Shown one piece after another: positions 5,876 through 24,508 of a DNA stretch of 64,000 bases. The DNA lies in contig CP084166.1 in the NCBI GenBank assembly GCA_021513695.1, forward strand, positions 736,001 through 800,000. Direction: 5' to 3'. Below the pieces are notes generated by a model. The model made no database searches. It had not been told where the DNA came from and was given only the letters and a program-made list of their open reading frames with translations. Every line of letters begins with the position of its first letter. Position 1 is the stretch's first letter. The translations under genes were made by a program, and so were the position numbers. Source of the stretch: Candidatus Heimdallarchaeum aukensis. Its GTDB lineage: Archaea; Asgardarchaeota; Heimdallarchaeia; Heimdallarchaeales; Heimdallarchaeaceae.

Positions 5876-6397
5876 ATGAATTATGAGGATATGGTTCTTA
5901 AAGCTAGAGAAGAAAAAGATAAGTTCTTTAGAAGTCATCCTTATTCGCCCTTAACAACTGAACAAAAAAGGAATTTCAAAGGGTTGAATTATTTTGAACC
6001 AGACATTTCCTACAGATACGAAGTTGAAATTAAAAAATATGAAGATCAAAGGAAAGTTTCTATTCGAACTTCAAAAGGTACTGTTCAAGATTACATCAGA
6101 TGGGGATTTATCGAATTCGAAAGAGATGGCAAAATAAATATTTTAAGCGTTTTTAAACAAGAAGGAGAAAATTATTTTTTCATTCCTTTTAAAGATAAAA
6201 CCACCGGAAAGGAGACCTATTCTGCAGGTCGATATATAGAAGTAGAGGATCTAGGTGATAACATATACTTGCTAGATTTCAATTTTGCTTACAATCCTTA
6301 TTGTGCTTACAATGATAATTGGGTTTGTCCATTAACACCTTTTGAAAATACTTTAGAAATAGCAATTGAAGCAGGAGAAAAAAAGTTTCACGAATAA
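5876..6397 (+). CDS. DUF1684 family protein
   Basis: Matches the DUF1684 pattern (HPYSPLT..., FNFAYNPYCAYNDNWVCPLTP). ATG start. Confidence 0.6.
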   Translation: MNYEDMVLKAREEKDKFFRSHPYSPLTTEQKRNFKGLNYFEPDISYRYEVEIKKYEDQRKVSIRTSKGTVQDYIRWGFIEFERDGKINILSVFKQEGENYFFIPFKDKTTGKETYSAGRYIEVEDLGDNIYLLDFNFAYNPYCAYNDNWVCPLTPFENTLEIAIEAGEKKFHE

Positions 6398-7356: not shown

Positions 7357-7366
7357 TTAATTCACC

Positions 7367-8446
7367 TCAATTAAGTTCCCAGATTTCATTAATATTGTTT
7401 AGCAATTCCTGAATTGTTTCTACTGTATGATCTCCCATATGTCCAATTCTGAAGGTTTTATCTTTAAGATTACCATAACCATTAGCTAGTTCCATTCCTC
7501 TTTCAGCTAATGCAGCATTTAGTGCTCCTACATCCTTATTTAATGTATTTTCTATTGTTGTGACAGTAACTGATTCATATCCTTCTTCTGCAAAGAGTTT
7601 AAACCCTTTTTCTAAAGCCCATTTTCTTGTTAACTCTGCCATTGCTTTATGTCTCTCATAACGACCTTTTGCTGTCTCTTTAAGCATTTTTCCAAGTTGA
7701 TAATCAAGAGCATAAAGTAATGAGATTGCTGGTGTAGAAGGAGTTTGTTTCTTCTTCAAATAGTACTTATGAACTTTTAGTAAATCAGTATAAGTTCCCC
7801 TATTCTTTACTTCTTCTGCTCGTTTAATAGCTTTTTCAGAATAAATCATAATGGTTAATCCTGGAGGTAGAGCAAAAGCTTTTTGGGTTGAAGCAAAAAC
7901 GAAATCAGTATGCATTTCGTCAGGTAGGATTAAATCTCCTCCTAAACTTGAAACAGTATCAACAACGAGTAATGTTTCAGGATACTTACTAATTACTTCA
8001 CCTATTGCTTTAAGATCACTTCTCACTCCTGTACTTGTCTCATTTTGACAAACAGTAACAACATCATACTCTTGTTCTTTAAGTTTTTCTTCAATCACTT
8101 CAGGTTTGATAGCTTTACCCCATTCTACTTCTAAAACATCAACATTATGCCCACAATCTTTTAGAGTATCAGCCATTCTTTTAGAAAAAGCTCCATTAAC
8201 ACAACTTAAAGCTGCTTTTCCTTCTCTAATCAGATTTCTACCCGTGATGTCCATACCAATTGTTCCTGAAGCAGCAAAGACAGCAATGTGTTGCTCAGTC
8301 TTAAAATATTCTCGAAGTTGGGTCAAAATGCTTGCATATAGAGCAGTAAAATCTTTATGACGATGACCAATCATTGGTTTTACTTGTGCTTGAAGCACAT
8401 CCTCACTTACTTCAGTAGGTCCTGGAATATACAATCTTCTGTGCAT
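7367..8446 (-). CDS. class V aminotransferase (archaeal-type phosphoserine / serine-pyruvate aminotransferase)
   Basis: Class-V fold with a PLP-lysine region (SSTQKAFALPPG). It is adjacent to, and on the same strand as, the serA-like gene. Confidence 0.8.
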   Translation of the reverse strand: MHRRLYIPGPTEVSEDVLQAQVKPMIGHRHKDFTALYASILTQLREYFKTEQHIAVFAASGTIGMDITGRNLIREGKAALSCVNGAFSKRMADTLKDCGHNVDVLEVEWGKAIKPEVIEEKLKEQEYDVVTVCQNETSTGVRSDLKAIGEVISKYPETLLVVDTVSSLGGDLILPDEMHTDFVFASTQKAFALPPGLTIMIYSEKAIKRAEEVKNRGTYTDLLKVHKYYLKKKQTPSTPAISLLYALDYQLGKMLKETAKGRYERHKAMAELTRKWALEKGFKLFAEEGYESVTVTTIENTLNKDVGALNAALAERGMELANGYGNLKDKTFRIGHMGDHTVETIQELLNNINEIWELN

Positions 8447-8577: not shown

Positions 8578-10533
8578 CTAAAACTCAATAAATGGTAAGA
8601 AAATAGATACTTTCGTTCCAACATGATGAATGCTATCTATAAATATTTGTCCATCATGTAATTCTACAAGATTTTTTGTTATATACAAACCTAACCCTGT
8701 TCCTTCACTTTTTTCAGCTTCATCTGTTCTGAAAAAGGGCTTGAAAACATATGGGAGATCATGACTAGGGATACCAATTCCATGGTCTTGAATCTGAATG
8801 AGTAATCCTTTTCTGTTATCAGGATTATATTCACCTACATAATCTTTGATAACTGTAACTTCGATTTTAGAATTACTTAAAGAATATTTTATTGCATTAT
8901 CTAAAACATTGGATATTATCTGCTTAATTCTTTTTGGATCACCAAAATACTGAATATCTTTTGTTTCGAATTTCTTTTCTAACCTAATTTTTTTGCTTTT
9001 TAATTGTTCTTCAAAACTTCTTATTGTCGAATTAATGTTTCTAATAATATTAAACTTCTTTTTCTCTACTTTGAATCTATTATTTTCTATTTTAGAGACT
9101 ACAAGTAAATCTTCAATTAATGTTGTTAAAAGATCTGCACTTTCTTCCATTACTTCCAAGGTAGAGAAAATCTTTCTTTTAGGTAATCTTTCCCAGTATT
9201 TTTTAAGAAATTGAATACTCAAACTTATAGATGTAATGGGAGTTCTTAATTCATGACTGACAGAAGAGATAAAGTTTTTTCTTAGTTTATCCAAAGTAAG
9301 AAAGGGAGTAATATCTTGAAATTCTATTAGAGCACCTATAAAACTCCCAGAAGAGGTGATATTTACTCCTGAGACCTGAATAAAGAAATTTTCAGACAAC
9401 TCAAATGTATCACAGACTTTTTCTTTTTCTATTATTAATTCTTTAATAAAGGAGAATAAAGGGTCGTCTTTAAACTTTTCAGAAAAGATATTTAATGATA
9501 ATAAAGGTTCTTTATCTTCGGGATAGAGAACACGATAGAATTCTTCAAATTTCTTATTAAATAGACTAAAATTCCCTTCATCATCAATCAACAACAAACC
9601 AGGTGAAACTGTTTCAAAAATTGCTTCAAGTTTTAGTTTCTCTTCTAAAAGTTCTTCATTTTTTCGCTCTACTATCATTGATAATTCAGAGCTTGTTTCT
9701 TTTAGCTCTTTTTCTCTTTCTACATGTTTAGTAATATCTGTTGCAACCCCTAAAGCTGCTATCTCACCACTTGGTAATTTAATAGGAATCTTTCTTACTT
9801 CAATTGTTCTTTTTTCTCCAAAGGCATCAGTAAAAGAGCTTGTAGTTTTTATCCTACTTTTAGTATCTATTACTTTCCTATCATACTTTAAGAAATAATC
9901 AGTTTCACTCTTTACAGGTTGTATATCATGCTGAATAGAACCCTCAATCTCGCTTATTGGTAAATTAAAACGGTCTGCTAAAGCTTTGTTAGCTAATAGA
10001 AATCTCCCTTCTTCATTTTTTACAAAAATCATTTGTGGAACTTGATCTATTACTTCTCTTAAGATATTTTTATTGAATTCGAGTTCCATAATTTCATCCA
10101 ATTTTGATGAAAAAGAAGAAGCTACAGCAACATGACAATCATTGGACGAGTTAAAAATCACTTTTAGTTTTACAGGTAGTCTTTTTCCTTCTTTTGCAAG
10201 TAAAAAAGTTACAAAAGTAAAAAAACTTTTTTTTGAATCTGATAACTTTAAATAATATTCCAAATTTTTTTCTTTGTCTTTCTCTTCGAAATACTCATTT
10301 ATTTTTTTTTCAAGTATGATAGACTTCTTAACTCCTATAAGATCTTCAGCTCTTTTGTTTATATAAAGAATGGATAGATTGTTATTAAAAACAAAAATTG
10401 CTTCTTCTAAACTATCAAAACAAGATAGAATATCTTCATATTTCAGCTTTAATCCATCTACTCTAGCAGATTCGTTTTCTGTATTTTTATTTTTTTTATT
10501 TGAAGATACATCATTGGAAAAAAGATTACTCAA
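8578..10533 (-). CDS. sensor histidine kinase with multiple PAS domains
   Basis: Three PAS-like segments are followed by HisKA (SHELRTPITSI) and an HATPase_c N/G-box region (NAIKYS, DHGIGIP, GTGLGLYI). TTG start sits 3 nt after the response-regulator stop. Confidence 0.85.
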   Translation of the reverse strand: MSNLFSNDVSSNKKNKNTENESARVDGLKLKYEDILSCFDSLEEAIFVFNNNLSILYINKRAEDLIGVKKSIILEKKINEYFEEKDKEKNLEYYLKLSDSKKSFFTFVTFLLAKEGKRLPVKLKVIFNSSNDCHVAVASSFSSKLDEIMELEFNKNILREVIDQVPQMIFVKNEEGRFLLANKALADRFNLPISEIEGSIQHDIQPVKSETDYFLKYDRKVIDTKSRIKTTSSFTDAFGEKRTIEVRKIPIKLPSGEIAALGVATDITKHVEREKELKETSSELSMIVERKNEELLEEKLKLEAIFETVSPGLLLIDDEGNFSLFNKKFEEFYRVLYPEDKEPLLSLNIFSEKFKDDPLFSFIKELIIEKEKVCDTFELSENFFIQVSGVNITSSGSFIGALIEFQDITPFLTLDKLRKNFISSVSHELRTPITSISLSIQFLKKYWERLPKRKIFSTLEVMEESADLLTTLIEDLLVVSKIENNRFKVEKKKFNIIRNINSTIRSFEEQLKSKKIRLEKKFETKDIQYFGDPKRIKQIISNVLDNAIKYSLSNSKIEVTVIKDYVGEYNPDNRKGLLIQIQDHGIGIPSHDLPYVFKPFFRTDEAEKSEGTGLGLYITKNLVELHDGQIFIDSIHHVGTKVSIFLPFIEF

Positions 10534-10535
10534 TA

Positions 10536-11441
10536 TTAATCACCTTGAATAGGTAGGACTGTAAGTATTTCTTCCCAAGCTTTCTTTATATCCCATTTTT
10601 CTTCATTTTTAACCTTATTTGAATAAGGAGCTAGTATTTCTTCCAATCTTTTAGTAATTATATAATCAATCCTTGGAGCAATAACTACAAGCATAAATGG
10701 TATTTGCTGAGATAAGCTTTCAAAATCCTCATACGCATCAATGTATATATAACAAGCCATACCTATATTTTCTAAAAACAAAGGCACTCCCTGGGGATTT
10801 GTTACTTTTAATTCTCCATATACAGAGATAATAGTTTGAAAGATTTGAACGCCTAAACTATCTAATTCAATTTGTTGTTCTATTTTCTTGGGAAAATAAT
10901 CTACTGGCTGAGGGCCCAGCACATCATGCCATTTAATTAAAAGCAAAAAAACAGAATCTTTTGAATAACTATATATACTATCATGAGCCATTAAATTCTG
11001 ACTTAACTCTAAAGTTATTTTCTTCTTTAGTTCTTCTCTAATTTGATAATTTAATTTTCTTTTAGCTAACTTTCCTTCAACTATTGCTATCAAATCTTCT
11101 TCTTTGAAGGGTTTAATTATATAATCATCTATTCCCAAAGATTTACCATATCTTACTGACTCTGGGTCACTTTTAGCAGTAAGAAAAACAAAAGGAATGT
11201 CAAAAAATCTTTCATCTCTTGAGATTTTTTCATATAGAGAATAACCATCCATTCCTGGCATCATTATATCACAAAGAATAAGATCAGGGGGTCGAGTTAG
11301 ATTTTCTAACAAAGTTAATGCTTCATCTGCACTCTGGGCTAAAACAGGAAAGTAGTCATACATAGATAAAATACTGTCTAGTAAATACAAGATTTGCTTA
11401 TTATCATCAATAATTAAAATCGTTCCTTTCAAATTATCCAA
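10536..11441 (-). CDS. response regulator: REC domain plus ~170-aa C-terminal domain of unknown function
   Basis: REC motifs ILIIDDN, the phospho-acceptor D in LILCDIMMPGMDG, and K in DDYIIKPF. The C-terminal half is not an HTH; it may be roadblock-like. TTG start. Confidence 0.8.
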   Translation of the reverse strand: MDNLKGTILIIDDNKQILYLLDSILSMYDYFPVLAQSADEALTLLENLTRPPDLILCDIMMPGMDGYSLYEKISRDERFFDIPFVFLTAKSDPESVRYGKSLGIDDYIIKPFKEEDLIAIVEGKLAKRKLNYQIREELKKKITLELSQNLMAHDSIYSYSKDSVFLLLIKWHDVLGPQPVDYFPKKIEQQIELDSLGVQIFQTIISVYGELKVTNPQGVPLFLENIGMACYIYIDAYEDFESLSQQIPFMLVVIAPRIDYIITKRLEEILAPYSNKVKNEEKWDIKKAWEEILTVLPIQGD

Positions 11442-11530
11442 TTTATAAATTAGGGCTAGATAAAATAAAATTTTTGCTAGTGCTAGTTTTGTTTAAATTT
11501 TGTTTAAATTTAATGAAATAGATGAGCACT

Positions 11531-12934
11531 CTAAATGTTCAGTACTACCAGTAGAATTGAATAGGCTGTACTTATTATCCCCATTATTATTATAAGAGGA
11601 AAGATTTTTTTAAAATAGTCTTTAAAAGTAAATTCTATTCCTTCTCTTTTCAAAATATCAAGAGACATCAGAATTGTTACACTTCCTAAGGGAGTGAGAG
11701 CTCCTCCTACATTATCAGCCAAGATTAAACTAACCCAAGTCCCTTTGAAAATAGGAACAGAAACGGTGTTAGAAATAGTGATGAAAATGTAAGAGAAAAT
11801 TAGAGCTGCACTTGTGTTATTTAGAAAACCAGCTAGTGGTATACCAATGATTATAAAGAATACAACAACTAAAATTTGTGCTACTGTAGGTGAAAAATTC
11901 AAATCAAAGAATAACAAAATTAAATTAGATAAAGGAATAAGAGCCCCTGAAGCAGCGAATATCCCCATAAGAGTGAAAAGCATTACAAAAAATGTAATCA
12001 TTTCCCATTCTACACCATGTTCTACATATTTTTTTAAAGTTGAATTAAAAATAAAAACTCCAATGACAGCTACAATGAAAGCTATTGTTCCTACATCTAA
12101 ACCTAATACTGAAGATAATAGAAATCCTCCAAATAGAAGCAATAGTAAAGCAAAAGATTTCCAAACTTTAATCTTACTTTCTACACTAGACCATGGATTA
12201 ATTCTAGCGATTTGACTTTTTTTATCTCTATCTACTTTTTTGTTTATTTCCTTTTTGAAGATATAGTAAAAGTATCCATAGGCTACAAAGAATAAAATAA
12301 ACGATATTGGAAACATTAAAGCAGTGAAACCAATAAAAGTAATGGTACCTGGATAGAGACTAAAGAATATAATGTTGGGTATAGATGAAACAGGAGTAGG
12401 CATTCCTCCGATAATTGTATTAATTCCAACGAAAAGAACAAAAGGTAATGGATTTACATCCAGTTGTTTGCAAATTACAATAGTTAAAGATCCTAGCAGT
12501 ATAATAGCTGAAAGATTATCAAAAAACATACTGATGAAGAATGTTAGTCCTCCAATTGACATGAAGAGCATTTTGGGATTTCCTTTTGTCAGTTTAATGA
12601 TGTAAAGAGATATGAAATCGAAAAACCCTGAATCCTTTATTAGTTGAACAATAATACTTACTGAGAATATAATCAAGATTGCTTCTACATTTACTAAATC
12701 CGAAATCGCTTCAATAAAATGAGGATGTTCATTTTCAAAATTATAACCAAGATTCACTTCAAGAAGATGTTCCCAATCCATTAAAAAGAAGAAAACTACT
12801 ATTGACAAAATTGTACCTAATGCAGTTACTTTCAAGGAATCAAACTTTTCGTTCATTAATCCAGCAATTGTTCCTAGAACAATTATTGTAATCAATATTG
12901 AGCCTACTATTGTTAGTGTTACCACGTTTATCAC
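11531..12934 (-). CDS. ArsB/NhaD-superfamily permease (Na+/H+ antiporter NhaD / citrate-transporter-like), copy 1
   Basis: About 12 TM segments in an internally duplicated topology. It is 50-60% identical by eye to the next gene. GTG start. Confidence 0.7.
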   Translation of the reverse strand: MINVVTLTIVGSILITIIVLGTIAGLMNEKFDSLKVTALGTILSIVVFFFLMDWEHLLEVNLGYNFENEHPHFIEAISDLVNVEAILIIFSVSIIVQLIKDSGFFDFISLYIIKLTKGNPKMLFMSIGGLTFFISMFFDNLSAIILLGSLTIVICKQLDVNPLPFVLFVGINTIIGGMPTPVSSIPNIIFFSLYPGTITFIGFTALMFPISFILFFVAYGYFYYIFKKEINKKVDRDKKSQIARINPWSSVESKIKVWKSFALLLLLFGGFLLSSVLGLDVGTIAFIVAVIGVFIFNSTLKKYVEHGVEWEMITFFVMLFTLMGIFAASGALIPLSNLILLFFDLNFSPTVAQILVVVFFIIIGIPLAGFLNNTSAALIFSYIFITISNTVSVPIFKGTWVSLILADNVGGALTPLGSVTILMSLDILKREGIEFTFKDYFKKIFPLIIIMGIISTAYSILLVVLNI

Positions 12935-13164
12935 CTAAAGGGCTATTATAGCATTGGATATTTTCATACATTTTTATCGCTTGAAAGTAAACTGATTTTC
13001 CATATAATATTAAGTTTCCAATCCCTAAATAGTATTCTTTTATATATTTTTTTTATTTTTTGATTAGCACAAAAAAGATATAATATTTTACTTATTTATA
13101 GAATAAATGTCAAGAAATTGTGGAAAATAAGTCCTTAAAACCAAGTTTTATGATTTTTGTTAAA

Positions 13165-14553
13165 CTAAGCTCCAAGAAGGATTAGAACTATTGAATAACC
13201 AATACTAAGTAACGCAAATGTTAGAGTTAGTGGAATTGTTTTTTTGACATAATCCATGAAAGTAATTTTATATCCTTCTCTATTCAATATCTCCAGAGCC
13301 ATCAAAATTGTTATACTTCCTAAAGGCGTTAGAGCTCCTCCAATATTACCTCCAAGTACAAAAGCTATCCATGTTCCTTTTCCAATAGTTGTTGAAACAG
13401 AAGCAACCATGGTTGTAAAAATATATGAGAATATTAAAGCTGCAGAAGAACCGTTAAGAAATCCTGTAATAGGTAAACCAATTAATCCTATTATTAGTGC
13501 AACGAGTATTTGAGCCGTTGTGGGTGAAATATCCAGATCGAAAATAGAGATAAATAGATTCGCAATAGGTTGCAAAGCTCCAGAGCCAGCGAGGACACCC
13601 ATTAAAACAAACAAGGCTACAAAAAATACAATCATCTCCCACTCTATTCCAGAGTGAATAAACTTTTTTAACTTTTTATTAAATAAGAATAATCCAAAAA
13701 CTGCAACTATTAGAGCTATTGTTGCTACATCTAAACCTATAACTGAAGAAAGGAGAAATCCTGAAAATAGAACAATTAACAGCCCTATTGATTTATATAC
13801 TTGACTTCTTTCTTCAATTCCAGACCAAGGATTAATTCTAGAGATTTGTTTTTGTTTTTCTTCGGGTATTTTAATGAATATATCTTTTTTGAATATAATA
13901 AAGAAATAGAGAGAAGACAAGATGAAGAACAGTAAAGCTATTGGAAACATTAATGCTGTGAACTTAATAAAACTCATATCACCCTCATACAAGCTGTAAA
14001 AGATGATATTTGGAAGTGAAGAAACAGGTGTAGGTAGTCCCCCTATTATAGTATTAATTCCAACAAATAAAACAAATGGAATAGGATTTAAATCCAATTG
14101 TTCACAGATAACTACAGTTAGAGATCCTAACAAAATTATTGCTGAAAGATTGTCGAAAAACATGCTAATGAAAAAAGTCAATCCTCCTAAAGCGATAATA
14201 AGCTTTTTAGGATCTCCTTTTGTTAATTTTACAATAGAAAGCGAGACAAAATCGAAGAATCCTGCTTCTTTGGTCAAAGAAACGATCACACTTACTGAAA
14301 AAATGATCAAAATTGCTTCTACATTTATCATCTCAGCAATAGCTTCTAAATAACCCTCAGGAATAAATTCATGGCTAGTGTTTTCTAGTAACAATTTATG
14401 CCAATCTGTAAAAAAGAAAAAAATCACCATAACTACAGAAGCTCCAGTTACTGTTATTTTTGTAGTGTCAACACCTTCAACCATTAAAGCTATTATTGTT
14501 GCAATTACAGTTACAGATATTAATATTATTCCTATTGTTTCCACTACAGCCAT
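13165..14553 (-). CDS. ArsB/NhaD-superfamily permease, copy 2 (tandem paralog)
   Basis: Collinear similarity to 11531..12934 (e.g. FFDNLSAIILLGSLT, GINTIIGG.PTPVSS.PNIIF). ATG start. Confidence 0.7.
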   Translation of the reverse strand: MAVVETIGIILISVTVIATIIALMVEGVDTTKITVTGASVVMVIFFFFTDWHKLLLENTSHEFIPEGYLEAIAEMINVEAILIIFSVSVIVSLTKEAGFFDFVSLSIVKLTKGDPKKLIIALGGLTFFISMFFDNLSAIILLGSLTVVICEQLDLNPIPFVLFVGINTIIGGLPTPVSSLPNIIFYSLYEGDMSFIKFTALMFPIALLFFILSSLYFFIIFKKDIFIKIPEEKQKQISRINPWSGIEERSQVYKSIGLLIVLFSGFLLSSVIGLDVATIALIVAVFGLFLFNKKLKKFIHSGIEWEMIVFFVALFVLMGVLAGSGALQPIANLFISIFDLDISPTTAQILVALIIGLIGLPITGFLNGSSAALIFSYIFTTMVASVSTTIGKGTWIAFVLGGNIGGALTPLGSITILMALEILNREGYKITFMDYVKKTIPLTLTFALLSIGYSIVLILLGA

Positions 14554-14574
14554 AAAATATTCCTTCTTTACAAC

Positions 14575-16485
14575 TTATTCAAAGTCATCAGTTTTTACTT
14601 CTTCTTCAAGTTCTTCTTCAATTTCTTCTGATTCTTCAAGCTTTTCTTTTTCAGTTGATTTTTTTGTTTCTGGCTTTTCTTTTTCTTCTTCCTTTAATGG
14701 AGTTTCTTCAGTTAATTCAGAAATTATTTCTTCTTTGATTAATGTCTTTGGGTCTTTTAGTTCTCTCTTCAGTTCATATTTTATTTCTTCTTTTATCTCT
14801 TCCCTTATCTCTTCTTTAATCTCTTCTTTTAATAAAGATAATGCATCTTTAGAAAAATCTTTCATTATCTCTTTCTTCAGTTCTTTTTTTGGTGCTTCTT
14901 TAATCTCTTTCTTTATTTCTTCTTTAATCTCTGCTTTAATCTCTGCTTTAATCTCTTCTTTAATTTCCTCTTTTTCATCTAAGGGTTTTTCTTCAATTTT
15001 ATCCATAATTAACTCCTCTTCAATTTCTTTTTTCTCTTCTTTCTCTTCCTTCTCTTCTTTCTTTTCTCTTTCTTCCTTCTCTTTTTTCTCTTCTTTCTCT
15101 TCTTTCTTTTCTTTCTCTTCCTTCTCTTCTTTCTTTTCTCTTTCTTCCTTCTCTTTTTTCTCTTCTTTCTCTTCTTTCTTTTCTTTCTCTTCCTTCTCTT
15201 CCTTCTTTTCTTTCTTTATTTCACTTTTTGTTGGCTTTTCTTTTACTTTTTTCTCTTCTTTAGTCTTTTCTTTAGTTTCTTTTTCTTCTATTACAGATGC
15301 TTCTTCAGGCTCTTCTATACCAAAAAGTTCTCTCTTTACTTCTTCTTTGATTTCCTCTCTAACAGTTTCTCCAATATCTATTTTCTTCGAAATAGTTTCT
15401 TCTTTAGGAACTGTATCACTAGAAACTGCTTTCTCTTCTTTTTTCTCTTTCTTTTTTATATCTTCAGTAATGATTAATAGAGGAACAGTAACATCAGGGT
15501 CGCTTAACAGATCTATAAACAGTCCATATAAATTGGCTAATTTAGATGGAAGATAAATAATTAATAATCCAAGATCCTTACCAAAACTAATCATTTGGTT
15601 TTTTAACTCTTCATGGTCAGATAAAGAAAGAATTTCGAAATCTACAAATCGTTGTGAATCTTCAAAAACAACTTGATTCGCGCGCTCGAATTTATTCATT
15701 TCTTCTTTTTGTTTTGAAAGTAATTCTAAAAACTCTTCATCATTTAGATCTTGATACAAATATCTATTTAACAAGAACATGCAGTGTATGTTTGCATTTT
15801 TTATACTAAATTGAATAGATTTTTCAATTAAATACGATAGTCTACTTATACTTCCTGTTACTATACCGATGTGTTTCCACAAATACTCAGTATTTAATTC
15901 TTGACTCTCAATTATTAATACGGGAACATCGTTTTCTTCTAAAAGATAATTGAAAACATCACCCATAACTTCTATTTTTGCTTCTTCTTTATCTTCTTCT
16001 TGCTTTACTTTAATACTTTTTTTCATACCAATAAAGGAAGAAGGAACAACAATAAGATCATAGGTTGAAGCGTTAATTATTGCAGAAATAATATTTTTTA
16101 ATCCATCAAGATCTTCAACAACATGACCTTTAATATTAAAAAGTTTGCTAGATAGATGCTCATATGCAAAAGACAATGCTTCATCATACTGTTCTTTATT
16201 TGTATCTTCTTTAGAATAAAAACAGATAACATCTACCGTTGCTTGGAAGAACAATCTGAGTTCTTCAGCAAGTAAAACAACAGTACGAGATTTTTTAGAA
16301 CCATCTATAAGAACTAATACACTTTTTATTGGTTTAGCTGAAGGATCAACTGAAGGTAGAAGGTTTGCAAACTTCTTTTTCTGCTCCTCAATTGTTTCCT
16401 TTTGCACTTCTATTTTATCCTGATGATTGGACATACTAATTCCTCTCTCTATGCTTTTTAATTTTTCTTTTTGATTTTTAAACAT
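14575..16485 (-). CDS. tandem universal-stress-protein (UspA) domain protein with ~300-aa C-terminal poly-Lys/Glu low-complexity tail
   Basis: Two USP-like units (VLVLIDGSKKSR...LIVVPSS and IGIVTGSISRLS...LLIITED). These are followed by EEIKEEVKRE..., (EIKx)n and an (EEKEEKEKKEEKEEKKEKEEREKK)n tail. ATG start. Confidence 0.65.
   Translation of the reverse strand: MFKNQKEKLKSIERGISMSNHQDKIEVQKETIEEQKKKFANLLPSVDPSAKPIKSVLVLIDGSKKSRTVVLLAEELRLFFQATVDVICFYSKEDTNKEQYDEALSFAYEHLSSKLFNIKGHVVEDLDGLKNIISAIINASTYDLIVVPSSFIGMKKSIKVKQEEDKEEAKIEVMGDVFNYLLEENDVPVLIIESQELNTEYLWKHIGIVTGSISRLSYLIEKSIQFSIKNANIHCMFLLNRYLYQDLNDEEFLELLSKQKEEMNKFERANQVVFEDSQRFVDFEILSLSDHEELKNQMISFGKDLGLLIIYLPSKLANLYGLFIDLLSDPDVTVPLLIITEDIKKKEKKEEKAVSSDTVPKEETISKKIDIGETVREEIKEEVKRELFGIEEPEEASVIEEKETKEKTKEEKKVKEKPTKSEIKKEKKEEKEEKEKKEEKEEKKEKEEREKKEEKEEKEKKEEKEEKKEKEEREKKEEKEEKEEKKEIEEELIMDKIEEKPLDEKEEIKEEIKAEIKAEIKEEIKKEIKEAPKKELKKEIMKDFSKDALSLLKEEIKEEIREEIKEEIKYELKRELKDPKTLIKEEIISELTEETPLKEEEKEKPETKKSTEKEKLEESEEIEEELEEEVKTDDFE
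15041..15200. repeat. perfect 72-bp tandem repeat (2.2 copies) inside the K/E-rich coding tail
   Basis: 15041-15112 is identical to 15113-15184 and the next ~16 nt continue the unit. Each unit encodes a 24-aa K/E repeat on the minus strand. Confidence 0.9.
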
Positions 16486-16618
16486 CTCGAAATCGGTTAG
16501 TATATCGCTGTTATTACATTTTTTAAAATATTAAGTAAATGAGCGGTTTAGCTCAAAAAAAATGAGAGCATATAAAAAATGAATTTTCAAATTTTGTTAA
16601 CATAATTGATGAAATAAG

Positions 16619-17722
16619 TTAACTAAAGGCAGATTCCAGTTCTTCTTGCGTTGCAGGAGGGACAGTTGCAACTTTTAGATTCTCTTTAATATGTTCTTCA
16701 CCTTTCATGCCTATTAAAGTTGAAACAATACGTGGATGAGCAGAACGAGCATACTGAATTGCTTGTTGGGCTTTTGTAATTAAAAGAGAGAATTTTGGTT
16801 GAACTGACGATTTAAGTACTTGCCCTTGGAGTAAAGGAACAGAAGTAAATAAGTATAAGTTAAAATGTTTTGCAGCTTCAGCAAGAGAATATTTTGTATT
16901 CTCAATGTACTGATTCTTTAAACTTACAGCTTGGTGATAAATAAAATTCAGTGGGACTTGGATAAAACGAAATCCGTGATTTTCTCCACCCACTTTTTTT
17001 GCAATATTGAATACTTTTTCCAATTGCAAATAATGAGGATGTTTATCTTGAACCCTCAAACTATCCCAAGTTGCTAAACCGTACCACCTAATTTTATTAA
17101 TATCTCTCATTCTTTCAAAAAAAGAGAAAGCATCTTCAAGTTTATCATAGAATTCACTCGGTGTTATATAATCAAGTTGTGATTCTGCTGCATTGTGAAG
17201 ATATAATAGATCTATAGATGAAACTTTTAAGTTTTTCAAAGATTGTTCTAACTGAAATTCAAGAAAAGAAGGTGCCATAGAATGTATTCCACCGACTATA
17301 TCTTCTTTTCTGCAAACATAGCGGTGAATAAGTTCTTCAAAAATATATTCATTTAATTTACCATAATATTTTTCTTTAGAAGGAGCAATATATCCATTCT
17401 TTGTAGAAATAAAAATCTGTTCTCTGGTTATTTTATCTTCAGAAATTAATTCTTGAAGAGCATTACCTATAGCTCTTTCTGCTCTCTGGTGCCTATAATT
17501 TATGGCAGTATCAATAACATTTATTGCTCCTGATTCAATGCATGTTTTAACAGCATTTTTTACTTTAATATCATCTTCCTCTGTAGGTTGCCCAAGATAA
17601 GTACCTAAACCTAAAGAACTTAGGTGAAGTCCAAGTACTTCCCTAAAATGTTGTGGATGAATGTTTTTTACGGATATAGCTCTTTCTTTAAATGACTTTG
17701 TACCTTCTTCTGTAGCAAACAT
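16619..17722 (-). CDS. aldo/keto reductase family oxidoreductase
   Basis: AKR signatures (IDTAINYR, GLATWDS, Tyr/Lys/His catalytic-tetrad context). Confidence 0.8.
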   Translation of the reverse strand: MFATEEGTKSFKERAISVKNIHPQHFREVLGLHLSSLGLGTYLGQPTEEDDIKVKNAVKTCIESGAINVIDTAINYRHQRAERAIGNALQELISEDKITREQIFISTKNGYIAPSKEKYYGKLNEYIFEELIHRYVCRKEDIVGGIHSMAPSFLEFQLEQSLKNLKVSSIDLLYLHNAAESQLDYITPSEFYDKLEDAFSFFERMRDINKIRWYGLATWDSLRVQDKHPHYLQLEKVFNIAKKVGGENHGFRFIQVPLNFIYHQAVSLKNQYIENTKYSLAEAAKHFNLYLFTSVPLLQGQVLKSSVQPKFSLLITKAQQAIQYARSAHPRIVSTLIGMKGEEHIKENLKVATVPPATQEELESAFS

Positions 17723-17881
17723 AAAACTACTTTTGTTTTTTTTCTATAAAAGTCTTGTTCAAAACAAAAATAGCAGATTGCTTAAAAATTAAGTGAAAAC
17801 AAAAGACTTATCTAATTTTTTTATCAAATTAATTAAAGAAAGCAATTAAAAGATTGAAATTTCCATCAAAAGGTAAATTTA

Positions 17882-18655
17882 ATGAAGAAAAGATACTTAG
17901 AAGTCAAAGCAAGGTTTATTGCTGAAAAAATTTCACAAGCAAAGCACTTTATTGCTTTAACAGGTGCAGGGATTAGTACAGAGTCAGGTATTCCAGATTA
18001 TAGAGGAGATAACGGAATATACAAAAGTAAAGCACAAGGTAAAGAAGTGAAAGTAAAGCCTTTAGAAGAATTTGAGCCGAACCCTGCACACTACGCTTTA
18101 GTTAGATTACAAGATTTAGGCTTGTTAAAATTCATCATATCTCAAAATATAGATGGATTACATATTAAATCAGGAATAAAAGAATCACTAATTGCTGAAA
18201 TACACGGAAATTATTCTATTCTCAAATGTATTGAATGTGACTCAAGATTCACAAAAAAAGAAATGAATTGGGACAACGAGAAATATGGTTGGGGAGCAAG
18301 AAGTGCAGAGCCTAGCCCTGAACAACCAAACTGTCAAAATTGTGGTGGAAGATTAATTTCTTCAATTGTTAACTTTGGAGAACCAATGCCAGAAAAAGAG
18401 ATGAAATTAGCTAAAGAACATTCAAAAAAATGTGACTTAATGCTTGTTATTGGAACTAGCTTGAGAGTTGCACCAGCTAACACTCTTCCGAGTATCGCGG
18501 AGAAAAATGGTGCAGAGGTTTTTATCATTAACCTTAAACCTACAGGATTGGATAACATCTTAAAAAATGAAAGAATAAAAGCAAAAGCAGGAGAAATCTT
18601 GCCTTTAATAGTTAATTATATAGAGGAGAATATTGAAAAAGACAGTAAAACTTAG
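17882..18655 (+). CDS. Sir2-family NAD-dependent protein deacylase
   Basis: GAGISTESGIPDYRG, QNIDGLH, the Zn ribbon CIECDSRF...CQNCGG, and GTSLRVAP. Confidence 0.85.
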   Translation: MKKRYLEVKARFIAEKISQAKHFIALTGAGISTESGIPDYRGDNGIYKSKAQGKEVKVKPLEEFEPNPAHYALVRLQDLGLLKFIISQNIDGLHIKSGIKESLIAEIHGNYSILKCIECDSRFTKKEMNWDNEKYGWGARSAEPSPEQPNCQNCGGRLISSIVNFGEPMPEKEMKLAKEHSKKCDLMLVIGTSLRVAPANTLPSIAEKNGAEVFIINLKPTGLDNILKNERIKAKAGEILPLIVNYIEENIEKDSKT

Positions 18656-20325
18656 TTATCCTGATAAACTATTTCAACATCGATTAATGAAGAATAGTTA
18701 ATCTTACAACCCACAAAAGAACAAATTAAAATTAACCCATTTTTGAGTTCAGGAAAATTGTTTCCAAGTTCATTTAAAGTGATTTTTCTTCTTTGTTTAA
18801 TGAATTCTCTTAGATTTTCATATTTTATTTGTGTAATTATTCCAAATTCTGGAACAAAAACAAGGTTATTTTTTTCTATTTGTTCTTTGATTTGTTCGTA
18901 ATCCATGATTTTTTTGATATTATCAACGGAATAAAGACCTAGTTCATCAGCTAATTGATTAATCTCCACTACTTCATTATTGGAGGAGATTAATTCACAT
19001 ATTCCGATAAATTTTGTTATTATTGTTTCAATCCTTTCGCTTATATCAGAATATTTAGATTCAAGTAGATTATGTAACGTTAAACTAGGAATTTTGTTCT
19101 TCTTATAATAAACAATATCTACTGTTTCCAGAATATCATTAAAATGAGACTCTAGTTTTTTATCAACGAGATAGATTATAGGAAGATCAGTTTTCGCTAT
19201 TTCCAGCATTTTTGTTCTTTTTTTATGGATGTATTTTTCTGTATAGAAGCCTACAATTTCAAGGTAAACTTTCTTTTCTCCTCTTTTAAGCGTAAAATCT
19301 GGAACAAATATCTTATCAGCTAAAAAAATAGTTTCTGGTTCTGCTGTAGCTGTCCATCCTTTATTATTTTGCCATTGAGATAAGAAAATTCTTTCAATTT
19401 CTGAGTCTACTTCAAGTTGTTTTTCTTGTTCTCCTTCAGCTACAAATGTGTCTGATTTTCCAAAAGGAAGAGGAGGAGGATTAAAAGAATCTAATTGAAA
19501 AATTAAATTTCTTTTTCTTGGTTTTACTACGCTTTCTAGCTTAAATTGAATATTTTCCAAAAAGCAATATTTTATTATGAACAGAGCTACTGAAGTAATA
19601 TTTTTCCCCCATGTTGAAGCTCCTTCAAAAAATTCTGTAGGCGGTTCAATTTTCACTGAATAAGGAAAGTCAGGGTCATCTGTTTTCAATATTTCAGACC
19701 AAACATAATTAGCTTTAGAAAGAAAGATTATTCTTTTGGAAAATCCTCCAGGTAAGGAGGAAAGATTTATTGAAACATTTAAAGAGAAATTGAGTAGAGT
19801 TTCAATTAGGTCATAATTATATTCTTCTACAAGTTTTTTCGAATCAACATCATTCTCTATAACTTTAGTCAATATTTTCTCATGCTCTTTGTCTGCATAA
19901 AGTAAATTTTCTATATCTTGTTCAGAGATATTTTTTTCTTCCTTTATTTTTTGTAAGAAACTTGTTCTTTCTTCTTTACTTACAAAACCTTCTTGGTAGT
20001 GTTCACTTACAAAATCAAATATAAATTCTCTAAATTCTTCTATAGTTTCTATATTTAGACTTTCAAACTTCACATTAGGTTGCTGAAAGGTAAAATATCT
20101 TCTTGATGAAATTAAAATTGCTTCAGAAATCTTTTCTGATGGAAAAATCTCATTTAGAACCTTAAAATTTATTTCTCTTCTTTTCTTACCAATATTTGTT
20201 TCTAAAAAATTGATTATAACTGCTATTTTATTTTCATCTTTATATGTGAGAAAATAAGGAAAGATTTGCATTTTCTTGTTTATTTTTCTGGTTTCATATT
20301 CAAGTTTTGATAAAGCTAACCTCAC
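18652..20325 (-). CDS. Bax1-like nuclease (DUF790) partner of XPB
   Basis: It sits immediately downstream of, and co-directional with, the XPB helicase, with a 14-nt gap. This is the canonical archaeal xpb-bax1 arrangement. The size (557 aa) is consistent. The call rests on synteny, not on a verified motif. Confidence 0.55.
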   Translation of the reverse strand: MRLALSKLEYETRKINKKMQIFPYFLTYKDENKIAVIINFLETNIGKKRREINFKVLNEIFPSEKISEAILISSRRYFTFQQPNVKFESLNIETIEEFREFIFDFVSEHYQEGFVSKEERTSFLQKIKEEKNISEQDIENLLYADKEHEKILTKVIENDVDSKKLVEEYNYDLIETLLNFSLNVSINLSSLPGGFSKRIIFLSKANYVWSEILKTDDPDFPYSVKIEPPTEFFEGASTWGKNITSVALFIIKYCFLENIQFKLESVVKPRKRNLIFQLDSFNPPPLPFGKSDTFVAEGEQEKQLEVDSEIERIFLSQWQNNKGWTATAEPETIFLADKIFVPDFTLKRGEKKVYLEIVGFYTEKYIHKKRTKMLEIAKTDLPIIYLVDKKLESHFNDILETVDIVYYKKNKIPSLTLHNLLESKYSDISERIETIITKFIGICELISSNNEVVEINQLADELGLYSVDNIKKIMDYEQIKEQIEKNNLVFVPEFGIITQIKYENLREFIKQRRKITLNELGNNFPELKNGLILICSFVGCKINYSSLIDVEIVYQDN

Positions 20326-20339
20326 TTTAATCCCTTATC

Positions 20340-21746
20340 CTAAATAATTTCACTTTTCTTTCTCCTTTTTGCCGTCGAAACTTCTAAACTGCTTGATGTT
20401 ACAAGTTCATACAGTTTCACTTTTTCTGTTTTGGGTCTTAATAACCTGCCTAAACGTTGAATAAATTGTCTTGATTGCCCAGAACCACTAACTATAATTC
20501 CTACATTAGCTTCTTTTACATCTAATCCTTCATCCAAAACTTTACCCGTAACTAATTTTGAATACTTTCCTTCTTTGAATTTCTTGAGAATAACGTTTCT
20601 TTCCGAACTTTTTGTTTCGTGAGTGATTGAAGGAATAAGAAATCTTTTGCTTATCATATAGACCATATCATTGAATTCGCTAAAAATGAGTACTCGATCA
20701 CTCTTATGCCTTTTTAGTAATTCTGCTATTTTAACCAATTTAGATTGAGAAGAATAAACAATTGTTCGTGCTTTCCTATGTGCTTCTAAAGCTTCTTTAG
20801 CTTCTGGGTCAACATTTACTCTAAAGACTAAATAACGTTCATAATCTTTGGGAGATCTTATTTGAATTTTTCTTTTTCTTAAATAAGAGCGGTAAATGTT
20901 CATATATTTTTCATATTGCATTTGCTCTTTTTGGAACAAATCAATTTCAATTGTCTCTAAATCAAATTTGGCAACAAAACCTTCATTTACTAAATCAGAA
21001 ATAGTAGAAACAACGATTTGAGGACCAATTAATGTATAAAGTTCTTTTTCACCACTATCTGCTCTATCAGGTGTTGCAGTCAATCCTAATCGATAAGGAG
21101 CAGGAAATCCTTCTGCTATCTTAATTGTTTTTTCTGCAGGAAGATGGTGGACTTCATCAAAAATAATAAACGAAAAATGTTTTCTTAATGTGTTAATATT
21201 TTGCCTTGCACTTGCATAGGTTGTTACTGTAATATCTTTAATTTCTTTGACATTATCACCAAATTGACCTACCATTTCTCTTGTTATTGAAGTAAACTCT
21301 ACAATCGCTTTTATCCACTGCTCTAATAGGTTAATTACAGGAACAACAATCAATGTTTTTTGTTTTATTTTTTCTAAAGCTGAAAGACCAATAATTGTTT
21401 TTCCTGCAGCTGTAGGTAAGATAACTACTCCTCTATATTTGTTTAAAGTAAATCTTGTTAAGGTTTCTTTTTGATAATCTCTAAGTTGAACATTCAATTT
21501 AAGAGCTTGTTTGTATTCGTCTGATAAATGAATCTCTTCCAAGATTGTTGAATTAACAAAAAACCCTTCTCTTTTTAGTCTTTCAACTATTGTTTGATAA
21601 CGAAAAGGAAGAGCTCTATACTCATTTTCAACTTTTTTACTTATTTTAACTATTCTTGACCATTTCTTCATTTCTAAAGGGTGTGATGTCTGAATTATTA
21701 AATCAAAAGCAAGACCTAGTTTCACTTTAGCTTCTTTTCTATTCAT
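20340..21746 (-). CDS. xpb: XPB/Rad25-type SF2 DNA helicase
   Basis: Q-motif RDYQKE, Walker A LPTAAGKT, motif II DEVHH, and motif VI QRLGRLLR. There is an N-terminal damage-recognition-like domain. Confidence 0.75.
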   Translation of the reverse strand: MNRKEAKVKLGLAFDLIIQTSHPLEMKKWSRIVKISKKVENEYRALPFRYQTIVERLKREGFFVNSTILEEIHLSDEYKQALKLNVQLRDYQKETLTRFTLNKYRGVVILPTAAGKTIIGLSALEKIKQKTLIVVPVINLLEQWIKAIVEFTSITREMVGQFGDNVKEIKDITVTTYASARQNINTLRKHFSFIIFDEVHHLPAEKTIKIAEGFPAPYRLGLTATPDRADSGEKELYTLIGPQIVVSTISDLVNEGFVAKFDLETIEIDLFQKEQMQYEKYMNIYRSYLRKRKIQIRSPKDYERYLVFRVNVDPEAKEALEAHRKARTIVYSSQSKLVKIAELLKRHKSDRVLIFSEFNDMVYMISKRFLIPSITHETKSSERNVILKKFKEGKYSKLVTGKVLDEGLDVKEANVGIIVSGSGQSRQFIQRLGRLLRPKTEKVKLYELVTSSSLEVSTAKRRKKSEII

Positions 21747-21918: not shown

Positions 21919-22764
21919 ATGGTAGCAGAGGATAATATACATCATTCATATGACTCTACTGAAGGTGAGTTTACTGTAAAAGCAACTAATCTTGTTAAAA
22001 GGTTTGGTGATGTAATTGCTGTAAATAACCTTACTTTTAACGTGAGAAAAGGAGAGATTTTTGGACTTTTGGGACCAAATGGAGCAGGAAAAACAACTAC
22101 TGTAAAAATGATATTAGGATTATTGGAACCTGATGAGGGAGAAATAAGAGTATTTGATCTTCATCCTGAAAAAGATGAAATCGAGGTTAAAAAAAGAGTA
22201 GGGTATGTCTCAGAAGAACCTCTAATTTACCGTTCTATGACTGCTAGACAATTATTTAATTTTGTAGCTTCCTTAAGGAATTTGGAACCAGAAGAATTTA
22301 ACCAGAAGCTTCAATCCCTTTTAGAAAGTTTTGAAGCTCTACCTTATTATGATAAAATAATAGCTACTCTTTCAAGAGGAAATAAGCAAAAAATGCAAGT
22401 TATTGCTTCCTTATTACATGAACCAGATTTGCTAATTATGGATGAACCTCTAACCGGATTAGATGCAAAATCAGCTAAAGTCCTAAAAGAAATCTTAGAG
22501 ATGCATAAAGAAAAAGGAGGTTCGGTTATTCTTTCTACCCACATTTTAGAGATCGCTGAAGAGCTATGCGACAGAATAGCAATAATTGATCATGGAAAAT
22601 TGGTAGCTTTAGGTACAATAGAAGAGCTGTCTCATTTAGCTAACAAAGTAGGAGCCGACCTTGAAGATATTTTCCTAAAACTAATCAATCAAGATGAATC
22701 CGTGGATATAATTGTTGATAAATTGAGAAAGTCTTTGAAAAATGGAAAAAACAACAAGAAATAG
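21919..22764 (+). CDS. ABC transporter ATP-binding protein
   Basis: Walker A GPNGAGKTT, the signature LSRGNKQKM, Walker B LLIMDEPLTGLD, and an H-loop. Confidence 0.9.
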   Translation: MVAEDNIHHSYDSTEGEFTVKATNLVKRFGDVIAVNNLTFNVRKGEIFGLLGPNGAGKTTTVKMILGLLEPDEGEIRVFDLHPEKDEIEVKKRVGYVSEEPLIYRSMTARQLFNFVASLRNLEPEEFNQKLQSLLESFEALPYYDKIIATLSRGNKQKMQVIASLLHEPDLLIMDEPLTGLDAKSAKVLKEILEMHKEKGGSVILSTHILEIAEELCDRIAIIDHGKLVALGTIEELSHLANKVGADLEDIFLKLINQDESVDIIVDKLRKSLKNGKNNKK

Positions 22765-24508
22765 AGGGATAGGAGTGGCTAGTTTAATTTCTTTGTATAA
22801 ATTATCGAAAAGAGTTTATCATGAATCAATTTTACATTCTCAATTAGAATCATCTGGTAGCAATATTGCCAAATTATTAGAGAGAATAGGTAGAAATCCA
22901 AAAATCATCTCTTCTCAACCAAAAATAATGAAATTTTTGTCTTCTTTTTACATTCTCTTTTTAACAATAATCCCTGTAAGATCCATAACCGTAGTTAATT
23001 TTATAATATCAAGTAACAAACCCTCCCACACTCAAATACCACAACAGTGGATTACACTTGTAGGAAGTATGATGTCCAGTGCTTTTTTACTTTTAGAACC
23101 TTTTATTCTGATAATTTTTTCTATAATGATGACTTGGGGATTGTTCTCACCAGAAATTTATGCTTGGCCACAAACTCTACCTCTTAGAAAAAAAGATGTT
23201 GAAAAATTAAGCCTTTTAACCTTCATAAGAGGAATAAACATTCAATTACTCTTTATGATATTAGTATTTCCTTTAGGAATAGCTATAGGCATTTTAATTG
23301 ATTTTTCACTTTATTCACCTATAATGGCCTTTTTATTAATTCTTACTGCACTTATTATATCAATAGTCTCAGCTTTCTTCAATTTAGGTGTTGTTGTTTT
23401 TATTTCCAAAAAAATGTATATTTTGATGGATGAAAAAGAAGACAATTCAGGGAAATCTTCAATAATTAAAACAACTATTTCGCTCCTTTATTTAATTTTT
23501 TCAATGACTTTAATGTATATTATCCAAATCTCAATTGAAAAAATTCCTGATTACTTTACAACAGTTCTACTGTCAAATGAACAATCTTTATTGGTTAACA
23601 ATATTTTAAGCTTTATTCCATTTCCTTTCTCTGGGGGATACTTGATTACTATCCTTATAACAAATCATTCTCTTTACTTTTCACCTATTACAGTCATTGG
23701 TTCCATAACTGGCTTGATTGTATTTGCAATTCTCACCTATTTTCTAATAAAACATTCTGTAAGTACGCTTCTAAACACACCTAAAATAAAATCGGATTCA
23801 ATGAAAGAAAAAAGGAATAAAAAAGAAATAATTGTTCAATTGCAAACAACTTCTCCTCTAAAAGCATTTATTCGGAGAGATCTGACAATAATTTCAAGAG
23901 ATATGCAATTGATAATGGTTTTTGTCATGCCAATTGTTATTCCAATCTTTGCAGTGATTACAGATATTGAAGACAATGTTTTATTAAATGAGGTTGGACT
24001 TACAGGAGCTTTTCTCTCTGTCTTATTTTACATAGCTTTGACTACTTACATGATAATAACAGGTGTTACAAACATTGAATCTGGAGGAGAAACAATTACC
24101 TCATCAATTCCAATAAGAACAAGAGATCAAGTTAAGAGTAAAATTCCCTACTTTTTCACATCAATAGTTCTAGCTTTTCTTATATGGCACTTGTTTTTCA
24201 TTAATGATGAATTTTTCTCGAAAATGATAGTATTTGGTCTTGTTTATCTTCCAGTTATCCCTTTAGCAGGTATAGGAGGATTGTTTTTCAAAATACTCAT
24301 GTTTGGAAAGTTAAGATACAAGTATGTAGTAGAAGAAATAAAAACAGAACATCGTTTTATTAAACATATTAGTTCATTTCTGTTTGTTCTACTATCTTTG
24401 TTACTTTTTGTAGGACTCTCTTTCCTTGGATATGGGGCTTTGGGAATAGGAGAAATAGTTTACTTGACTCTATTAATTGTTGTATTTAATCATATGTTCC
24501 CGAAGTAA
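22742..24508 (+). CDS. polytopic membrane protein, probable permease partner of the ABC ATPase
   Basis: Its start overlaps the ATPase stop by 23 nt. It has at least 12 hydrophobic segments and no other motifs. Confidence 0.5.
   Translation: MEKTTRNRGIGVASLISLYKLSKRVYHESILHSQLESSGSNIAKLLERIGRNPKIISSQPKIMKFLSSFYILFLTIIPVRSITVVNFIISSNKPSHTQIPQQWITLVGSMMSSAFLLLEPFILIIFSIMMTWGLFSPEIYAWPQTLPLRKKDVEKLSLLTFIRGINIQLLFMILVFPLGIAIGILIDFSLYSPIMAFLLILTALIISIVSAFFNLGVVVFISKKMYILMDEKEDNSGKSSIIKTTISLLYLIFSMTLMYIIQISIEKIPDYFTTVLLSNEQSLLVNNILSFIPFPFSGGYLITILITNHSLYFSPITVIGSITGLIVFAILTYFLIKHSVSTLLNTPKIKSDSMKEKRNKKEIIVQLQTTSPLKAFIRRDLTIISRDMQLIMVFVMPIVIPIFAVITDIEDNVLLNEVGLTGAFLSVLFYIALTTYMIITGVTNIESGGETITSSIPIRTRDQVKSKIPYFFTSIVLAFLIWHLFFINDEFFSKMIVFGLVYLPVIPLAGIGGLFFKILMFGKLRYKYVVEEIKTEHRFIKHISSFLFVLLSLLLFVGLSFLGYGALGIGEIVYLTLLIVVFNHMFPK

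Follow-up and report, generated by a model that had tools for sequence, protein, structure and literature searches.

A permease-paired tandem-USP-fold gene with a conserved charged tail and a 72-bp in-frame repeat in Candidatus Heimdallarchaeum aukensis

Within a 64,000-nucleotide stretch of the Candidatus Heimdallarchaeum aukensis genome (GenBank assembly GCA_021513695.1, contig CP084166.1, positions 736,001 to 800,000 of the forward strand; hereafter the window, whose own numbering is used for all coordinates), an earlier note made from the sequence alone had singled out a minus-strand gene for a tandem universal stress protein (USP) with a lysine- and glutamate-rich (K/E) tail and a perfect 72-bp tandem repeat. 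Our analysis retrieved the same open reading frame (ORF) and the same identical repeat units. On its own, the 72-bp repeat is an ordinary case of probable recent slippage within a charged spacer, and each ingredient of the locus is already known, from tandem USPs and USP-transporter coupling to ER/K or KEKE sequences and the intragenic repeats of Heimdallarchaeum. The more useful result is the family to which the gene belongs, a tandem-USP-fold family found here only in Heimdallarchaeia, always paired with a permease, and carrying a conserved charged tail.

The gene, its reading frame and its fold

The gene, its predicted domains, the layout of its tail (derived from an alignment of 24 non-identical tailed Heimdallarchaeia proteins and given in the residue numbering of the window protein) and the ORF that mirrors it on the opposite strand are as follows:

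14575..16485, minus strand: tandem-USP-fold gene with a charged helical tail, 636 aa from M1, based on the ORF call, orthologues and purifying selection
15901..16329, minus strand: USP-like domain 1, residues ~53-195, with an invariant PSSFIG and an acidic insert of ~21 aa at the ATP-motif position
15460..15879, minus strand: USP-like domain 2, residues ~203-342, seen by fold only, as an alpha/beta domain in the AlphaFold2 (AF2) model, with no Pfam match
15388..15450, minus strand: tail linker 1, residues 346-366, varying in length and sequence across orthologues, dN/dS ~0.11
15319..15387, minus strand: tail motif 1, residues 367-389, KKIDIGETVREEIKEEVKRELFG, a conserved amphipathic helix
14977..15318, minus strand: tail linker 2, residues 390-503, a variable K/E spacer, the longest among the 24 orthologues
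14710..14976, minus strand: tail module 2, residues 504-592 (~90 aa), a conserved charged helical module with EEIK repeats
14599..14709, minus strand: acidic stretch, residues 593-629, variable in the alignment
14578..14598, minus strand: C-terminal peptide VKTDDFE, with a [DE]-F-E-COOH ending in 24/24 tailed orthologues
14378..15556, plus strand: mirror-strand ORF rich in S/F, 392 aa, no gene but an artefact arising from the homopurine coding strand

The closest complete genome found, that of Candidatus Heimdallarchaeum endolithica PR6 (CP084167.1, locus L004), is syntenic with this region over 13 kb at 84-86% nucleotide identity. Comparison with this sister species identifies the minus-strand K/E frame as the coding frame, because substitutions are synonymous in it (dN/dS 0.02) and because the mirror ORF is broken in PR6, where its counterpart is shortened to 208 aa. 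In the minus-strand frame, dN/dS was 0.022 in the N-terminal domain and again 0.022 in tail module 2, equal to the USP core, and reached ~0.11 in the alignable portions of linker 1 with motif 1 and, likewise, in the acidic C-terminal stretch; dS in linker 2 was saturated, leaving no computable ratio. The minus-strand product is in addition conserved at more than 40 loci. That the plus-strand ORF should be the true gene, as its 392 open codons might suggest, therefore has virtually no credence, since it also runs over the 5' end of the adjacent permease gene, and the earlier dismissal of this ORF as an artefact stands.

The start codon is ambiguous (16434-16485; 5991-6053 at the PR6 locus), as the position equivalent to M18 is the start in orthologues outside the genus, and the product would count 619 aa if M18 (ATG at 16434) were the true start. 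A GAGAGG sequence lies ~9 nt 5' of the M18 ATG, and the 51-nt stretch between M1 and M18 shares 96% identity with H. endolithica, against ~86% overall; judging from this nucleotide pattern, it could be a conserved leader instead of coding sequence.

Scans of the full 636-aa protein with Pfam and NCBIfam gave no match. Searched alone, domain 1 scored 22 bits against Pfam Usp (PF00582; E 2.6e-4), below the gathering cut-off of 24, and domain 2 matched nothing in Pfam, so that the gathering score is reached in neither domain. The description of the protein as a tandem USP thus fails by Pfam threshold and holds by predicted fold, which comprises two consecutive USP-type alpha/beta domains of the HUP class. 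Tandem USP structures align with it over 215-244 residues, across both domains, and the structural matches of the USP core include TeaD, the USP domain of KdpD and cotransporter C-terminal domains. On the strength of these models, the family is a very divergent tandem USP, tandem only at the level of the fold. Its product shares only 12-15% identity with the tandem USPs of A. fulgidus (3loq), UspE/YdaA (4wy2 and 5cb0), TTHA0350 (3ab7) and M. tuberculosis Rv2623 (3cis), none of which has the additional conserved charged tail of 207-291 aa carried by the family.

A second difference from these tandem USPs lies in the nucleotide-binding motif. The classical G-2x-G-9x-G-[ST] is replaced in the family by the invariant PSSFIG and the 21-aa acidic insert, the motif position holding P-S-S-F-I-G, 21 residues, and then G-D. 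The motif was found in 0/36 family members, even when relaxed to spacers of 8-11 residues and to G[STD], which on this motif places the family outside the MJ0577-like subclass of ATP-binding USPs. Nucleotide binding by the family may nevertheless occur, since TTHA0350, in which no such motif can be recognised, does bind ATP (PMC12159084).

When 1.84 billion representative proteins were searched with the family profile, only eight matched at E <= 0.001. Seven of them cover at least the first ~80 profile positions, and the eighth is a marginal match (E 5e-5) to a protein of 5229 aa. Among the hits to the family, all named sources are Heimdallarchaeia or unclassified Asgard/archaeal metagenome-assembled genomes (MAGs).

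A modular tail on a charged spacer

The tail spans 291 aa, or 46% of the protein rather than the third first supposed, and 64% of it is K or E (108 E, 78 K); near-pure K/E composition holds only for its core, residues 419-500 (82 aa, 88% K/E/D). Only ~55-62 of its 291 residues derive from the 72-bp repeat, which lies wholly within linker 2, and the idea that the tail was built from this repeat has consequently been abandoned. By the alignment, most of the tail is instead an ancient modular appendage conserved in the 24 Heimdallarchaeia orthologues, which is also more than the generic polyampholyte that had been proposed.

Motif 1 corresponds across orthologues to the block I.ID..[ILM]KE.IKEE[VI]KK.[IL].G, with an AF2 helix at residues 371-388. 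Module 2 is more extensive and strongly conserved, with a mean column identity of 83% among 11 orthologues and most columns 80-100% conserved in the 24-tail alignment. Its hydrophobic residues are almost only I or V and occur at every fourth position, giving a periodicity peak at exactly 4.0 that bears out the (EIKx)n pattern reported before, and besides two conserved prolines it contains an IKYELK that is near-invariant (F for Y in 5 orthologues). AF2 predicts helices at residues 505-528, 535-543, 546-575 and 581-591, at low pLDDT, with breaks at the conserved prolines. A coiled coil was rejected on periodicity (4.0 in module 2 against the 3.5-residue heptad), the repeat core being nearly free of hydrophobic residues. 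As the i/i+4 pairs of module 2 are same-charge and not opposite-charge, its sequence pattern is that of neither a heptad coiled coil nor an ER/K helix.

Beyond module 2, residues 593-636 carry a net charge per residue of -0.32 and lead to the [DE]FE terminus. The window protein ends in KTDDFE, many orthologues end in ...TSRMEFE, the SRM context occurring in one subclade only. Membership of the PDZ-ligand, 14-3-3 mode III, HbYX and EEVD classes was rejected by inspecting the motif directly: [DE]-F-E-COOH is not the EEVD-COOH of the TPR carboxylate clamp, and in 24/24 orthologues D/E occupies position -3 and F position -2, unlike HbYX.

Tail pieces searched against Pfam at E <= 10 returned only noise, and a module 2 profile searched against PDB sequences returned only a designed helical toroid at a non-significant E of 0.08. 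When the same profile was run against a set of 5.8 billion proteins, K/E-rich sequences saturated the candidates and the family's own members were not recovered. The conserved charged tail thus matches no Pfam family or solved chain, and no description of the protein family was found in the literature searched. Binding of nucleic acids or membranes by the tail is unlikely, given 117 acidic against 84 basic residues (net about -33) and about a quarter of hydrophobic residues.

The core of linker 2 has a different character from module 2. Residues 419-487 have a charged fraction of 0.96, a hydrophobic fraction of 0.01 and no Pro or Gly, and thereby show the composition of ER/K single alpha-helix (SAH) domains, namely at least 40 residues of E/K/R without a hydrophobic seam or helix breakers. 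By a crude count of our own, this core holds 0.54-0.64 opposite-charge i/i+4 pairs and 0.68-0.72 same-charge i/i+3 pairs per residue. In the AF2 model of the full protein, residues 429-497 form a continuous helix of 69 residues with pLDDT values of 53-73, the highest of the tail. Across all three domains of life, SAH domains have been described in linker or spacer roles (PMC5378345, PMC5812594), and they act as rigid spacers or springs (PMC5378345, PMC4183817). The spacer resembles those of myosin VI/X, caldesmon, INCENP and the KER region of CAF-1 in being a long, near-pure charged stretch without hydrophobic seam, Pro or Gly, and, according to the model, in forming a single continuous helix between functional modules. 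It differs from E4K4-type SAH blocks in its finely mixed charges, in runs of 1-2, and from the CAF-1 KER in its slightly negative net charge, which makes nucleic-acid binding of the CAF-1 kind unlikely for it.

The label of KEKE motif, also attached to the tail in the earlier note, is formally correct. Defined as more than 12 aa without W, Y, F or P, without five like charges running and with more than 60% K+E/D (PMC3427183, after Realini et al. 1994), such motifs are found in eight segments, the longest being residues 419-500. The definition is however compositional and describes neither a homologous family nor a mechanism, so that belonging to it says little about function.

The 72-bp repeat and length variation across the family

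Two overlapping features mark the repeat region within linker 2:

15037..15201, minus strand: perfect 72-bp tandem repeat, 2.29 copies of EEKEEKEKKEEKEEKKEKEEREKK units, residues 429-483; 165 nt, the maximal perfectly 72-periodic zone
15024..15217, no strand assigned: homopyrimidine tract (homopurine on the coding strand), 194 nt uninterrupted, enclosing the repeat

The 72-nt units at 15041-15112 and 15113-15184 are identical. Tandem Repeats Finder reports a period of 72 with 2.6 copies at 97%, and the 93 consecutive period-72 matches have a probability of ~1e-24, allowing for the local T/C composition. No second copy was found in the 64-kb window, nor any further K/E-rich stretch. The enclosing tract is the longest homopurine/homopyrimidine run of the window, the next one measuring 29 nt and those of shuffled sequence at most 20 nt, and it is likely a substrate for slippage. 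It is also a potential triplex-forming sequence.

Independent read data support the repeat. In the Logan assembly of run SRR15988954, two contigs match the window at 100% identity, over 10165-15066 and 15172-21722, and each stops precisely 30 nt within its edge of the perfect zone, a distance of k-1 at k=31. A de Bruijn graph is expected to break in this way at a real tandem repeat, and such breaks require repeated 31-mers, and therefore at least 2.29 copies in the reads; the repeat thus exists in the read data, with a copy number of 2.29, higher or heterogeneous, all three being compatible. That the duplication is absent or its copy number wrong, through an assembly artefact, accordingly seems highly improbable to us, even though short-read contigs of the gene family often stop inside the tail (L006, L007, L020, L035, L039, L047) and look-ups of the exact 636-aa and 619-aa products gave no other record.

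The orthologue of PR6 encodes 589 aa instead of 636 and lacks the repeat, its linker 2 being different and rich in poly-E; this places the duplication after the divergence of the two species, in agreement with the recent origin proposed for it. Orthologues fall into two groups, tailed proteins of ~540-600 aa and tail-less ones of ~335-360 aa, and at least seven MAGs hold both versions. Length variation, which had been predicted between strains, is documented at the level of species and family, with tails of 207-291 aa. Furthermore, other lineages carry in-frame repeats of their own in linker 1 or linker 2, all perfect or near-perfect, with units of 24 bp (3.1 copies, L006), 15 bp (4.5 copies, L007; 3.5 copies, L036) and 18 bp (2.3 copies, L018; 2.6 copies, L039). 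The 72-bp repeat also has a background at genus level, abundant tandem and intragenic repeats having been described from the two circular Ca. Heimdallarchaeum genomes (Wu et al. 2022, PMC8813620), in a main text that mentions neither the USP gene, nor USPs, nor the 72-bp repeat.

The contigs just named as stopping inside the K/E tail are joined by L048. Such frequent termination of short-read contigs explains why many public entries of the gene family are truncated, for instance P0005, P0009 and P0011. Entry P0001 (locus L035, Ga0180301_10062513) ends in CLLYTSPSPRDLSTSRMPSSA at the contig end, exactly at the expected start of the tail, an ending which we take to resemble translated sequencing-adapter sequence. 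The practical lesson is that the K/E repeats of this family systematically break short-read assemblies.

Permease pairing and the possible function of the tail

Two permease genes follow the USP-like gene:

13165..14553, minus strand: permease 1, 462 aa, ArsB/CitMHS-type, ion-transporter superfamily, starting 21 nt downstream of the USP-like gene
11531..12934, minus strand: permease 2, 467 aa, a tandem paralogue of permease 1, ~58-60% identical

Permease 1 matches Pfam CitMHS (1.3e-42) and ArsB in PDB (E 4e-12), which places it in the ArsB/CitMHS/DASS class. At all 33 loci with enough downstream sequence, its orthologue follows the USP-like gene immediately and in the same orientation, a linkage of USP and transporter genes of the TeaD/TeaABC kind. 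This adjacency holds for tailed and tail-less genes alike. Next to tail-less genes, the permeases cluster tightly with one another (84-95% identical), and this separate grouping suggests that gene and permease were duplicated together as a cassette. Coupling of a USP fold to a transporter, whether genetic or in cis, has precedents in TeaD-TeaABC of H. elongata, Rv2623-Rv1747, the USP domain of KdpD and the C-terminal domains of the KCC/NKCC cotransporters (PMC5549992, PMC12159084). The present system differs from these in its partner, a permease of the ArsB/CitMHS type, and in that an interaction is inferred here only from the adjacency of the genes.

With somewhat more belief than doubt, we read the protein as a regulatory, transporter-associated USP whose conserved docking tail is carried on an ER/K-like helical spacer of variable length. 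It would be a cytoplasmic protein restricted to Heimdallarchaeia, residues 1 to ~345 of which adopt a tandem-USP fold without the classical ATP motif, and which, by analogy with TeaD/TeaABC, Rv2623/Rv1747 and the C-terminal domains of cation-chloride cotransporters, may act as a regulatory or accessory partner of the adjacent permease. The distal module 2 and the C-terminal peptide would serve as a functional docking or regulatory element, whose reach would be set by the K/E spacer, modelled as an ER/K-type single alpha-helix. In the same scheme, the 72-bp repeat probably arose as a recent in-frame duplication, through slippage or unequal exchange in the homopurine tract, each 24-aa unit adding ~3.6 nm of helix (24 x 0.15 nm), and it would be tolerated because the spacer is constrained in length and charge character only, and not in sequence.

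Several points weigh against this interpretation. Gene adjacency is the sole evidence for an interaction with the permease, and the NCBIfam matches of permease 1, to ArsB and MamN, all fall far below their cut-offs, so that no substrate is assigned. The tail-less paralogue is permease-paired too, which makes the tail dispensable for the basic partnership. Module 2, with its same-charge i/i+4 pairs, is itself no ER/K helix, and its structure is only predicted, AF2 confidence in the tail being low (mean pLDDT mostly <55). Well-mixed E/K sequences may also act as extended disordered polyampholytes. Finally, the exact copy number of the repeat comes from a single assembly.

The strongest competitor is a neutral low-complexity expansion, to which we concede a real but minority chance. 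The spacer and its 72-bp repeat would then be slippage debris of an AT-rich genome (~30% GC), without length-dependent function and tolerated because it lies between functional modules. Linker length and sequence indeed vary freely, dN/dS is higher in the linkers (~0.11), independent repeats come and go between lineages, abundant intragenic tandem repeats have been reported from the genus (PMC8813620), and the existence of a tail-less paralogue points in the same direction. However, a K/E-rich linker of at least ~35 aa occupies the same position in 24/24 tailed orthologues, linker dN/dS is well under 1, and the lack of any further K/E-rich stretch in the window argues against a general proteome bias. 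Neutral expansion moreover accounts for the spacer only, and leaves module 2 and the [DE]FE terminus unexplained.

A more ambitious version of the docking interpretation, which we consider rather unlikely, holds that the distal tail, made up of the ~90-aa period-4 (EEIK)n helical module, the acidic run and the invariant [DE]FE-COOH, is an undescribed, Heimdallarchaeia-specific regulatory or docking module on a length-evolvable ER/K tether, through which the permease would be coupled to ionic strength or to some partner in the cell. If the tail were such a tethered docking or sensing device, it would offer in Asgard archaea a tractable, eukaryote-like design combining an ER/K tether with a C-terminal linear motif, an archaeal counterpart, in the closest lineage to eukaryotes, of the eukaryote-style charged helical tether with a C-terminal short linear motif. 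It would also provide a handle on the regulation of transporters by USP folds.

The charged helices might instead change in conformation or binding with intracellular K+ or ionic strength and so gate the adjacent permease, as an osmotic sensor. Such a sensor would recall the charged helical extensions at the C-termini of BetP, ProP and OpuA, which are osmosensory transporters, or the C-terminal domains of KCC/NKCC, which are tandem-USP-like and regulated by volume. The extreme charge density, the salt-bridge dependence of the predicted helix and the invariant pairing with a permease of the ion-transporter superfamily favour it. The case is nevertheless one of analogy only, homology of the tail to any osmosensor having been found in none of the Pfam, 5.8-billion-protein or PDB profile searches, and residue-specific conservation in module 2 and in [DE]FE argues for a specific protein interface over bulk electrostatics. 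This sensor is, in our estimation, decidedly improbable.

Still less credit is given to a C-terminal docking peptide for a third party, such as a TPR-like carboxylate clamp or a ring-ATPase/proteasome-type receptor, presented by the long helix. The [DE]FE terminus does follow an acidic run in 24/24 tailed orthologues and shares with EEVD-type ligands an acidic / hydrophobic / acidic-COOH chemistry; an orthologue ending in ...TSRMEFE is also reminiscent of Hsp90, which ends in ...TSRMEEVD. Against it, the motif is neither EEVD nor HbYX (D/E before F, and F in place of Y), the SRM context is absent from the window protein, and no TPR or other receptor gene is linked to the USP gene within the window.

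The surroundings of the gene add several observations. H. endolithica has both tandem permeases as well, and L029 and L041 show a second permease-like gene next in line; most other lineages have a single permease copy in the sequence at hand. The permeases are followed directly, again on the minus strand (8578-11441), by a PAS-containing histidine kinase (651 aa) and a response regulator of 301 aa with a receiver domain and no recognised output domain, the latter also present in H. endolithica (L004). At locus L003, a response-regulator gene adjoins the USP-like gene on the opposite strand. In the MAG JADCTL010000616, an actin-family gene (L001 608-2071) lies ~4 kb upstream of the USP-like orthologue, and the aminotransferase and 2-hydroxyacid dehydrogenase that neighbour it at L001 are common to the window (6430-8446).

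An Rfam scan of the window returned nothing, and a scan for sigma-70 promoters and terminators gave counts equal to those of shuffled sequence, the bacterial model not being applicable to an archaeon. Four ORFs are without a Pfam family at E <= 1e-5, namely 22742-24508 (plus strand, 588 aa), 27057-27908 (minus strand, 283 aa), 29895-30416 (minus strand, 173 aa) and 33239-34219 (plus strand, 326 aa). Elsewhere in the window, an archaea-typical gene pair encodes an XPB helicase and a Bax1 nuclease (18652-21746, minus strand), adjoined by a Sir2/CobB deacylase gene (17882..18655, plus strand). An Arf-family small GTPase of the Asgard eukaryotic-signature type (Pfam Arf 1e-35), with a C-terminal extension of ~140 aa, is encoded at 36873-37835 on the minus strand.

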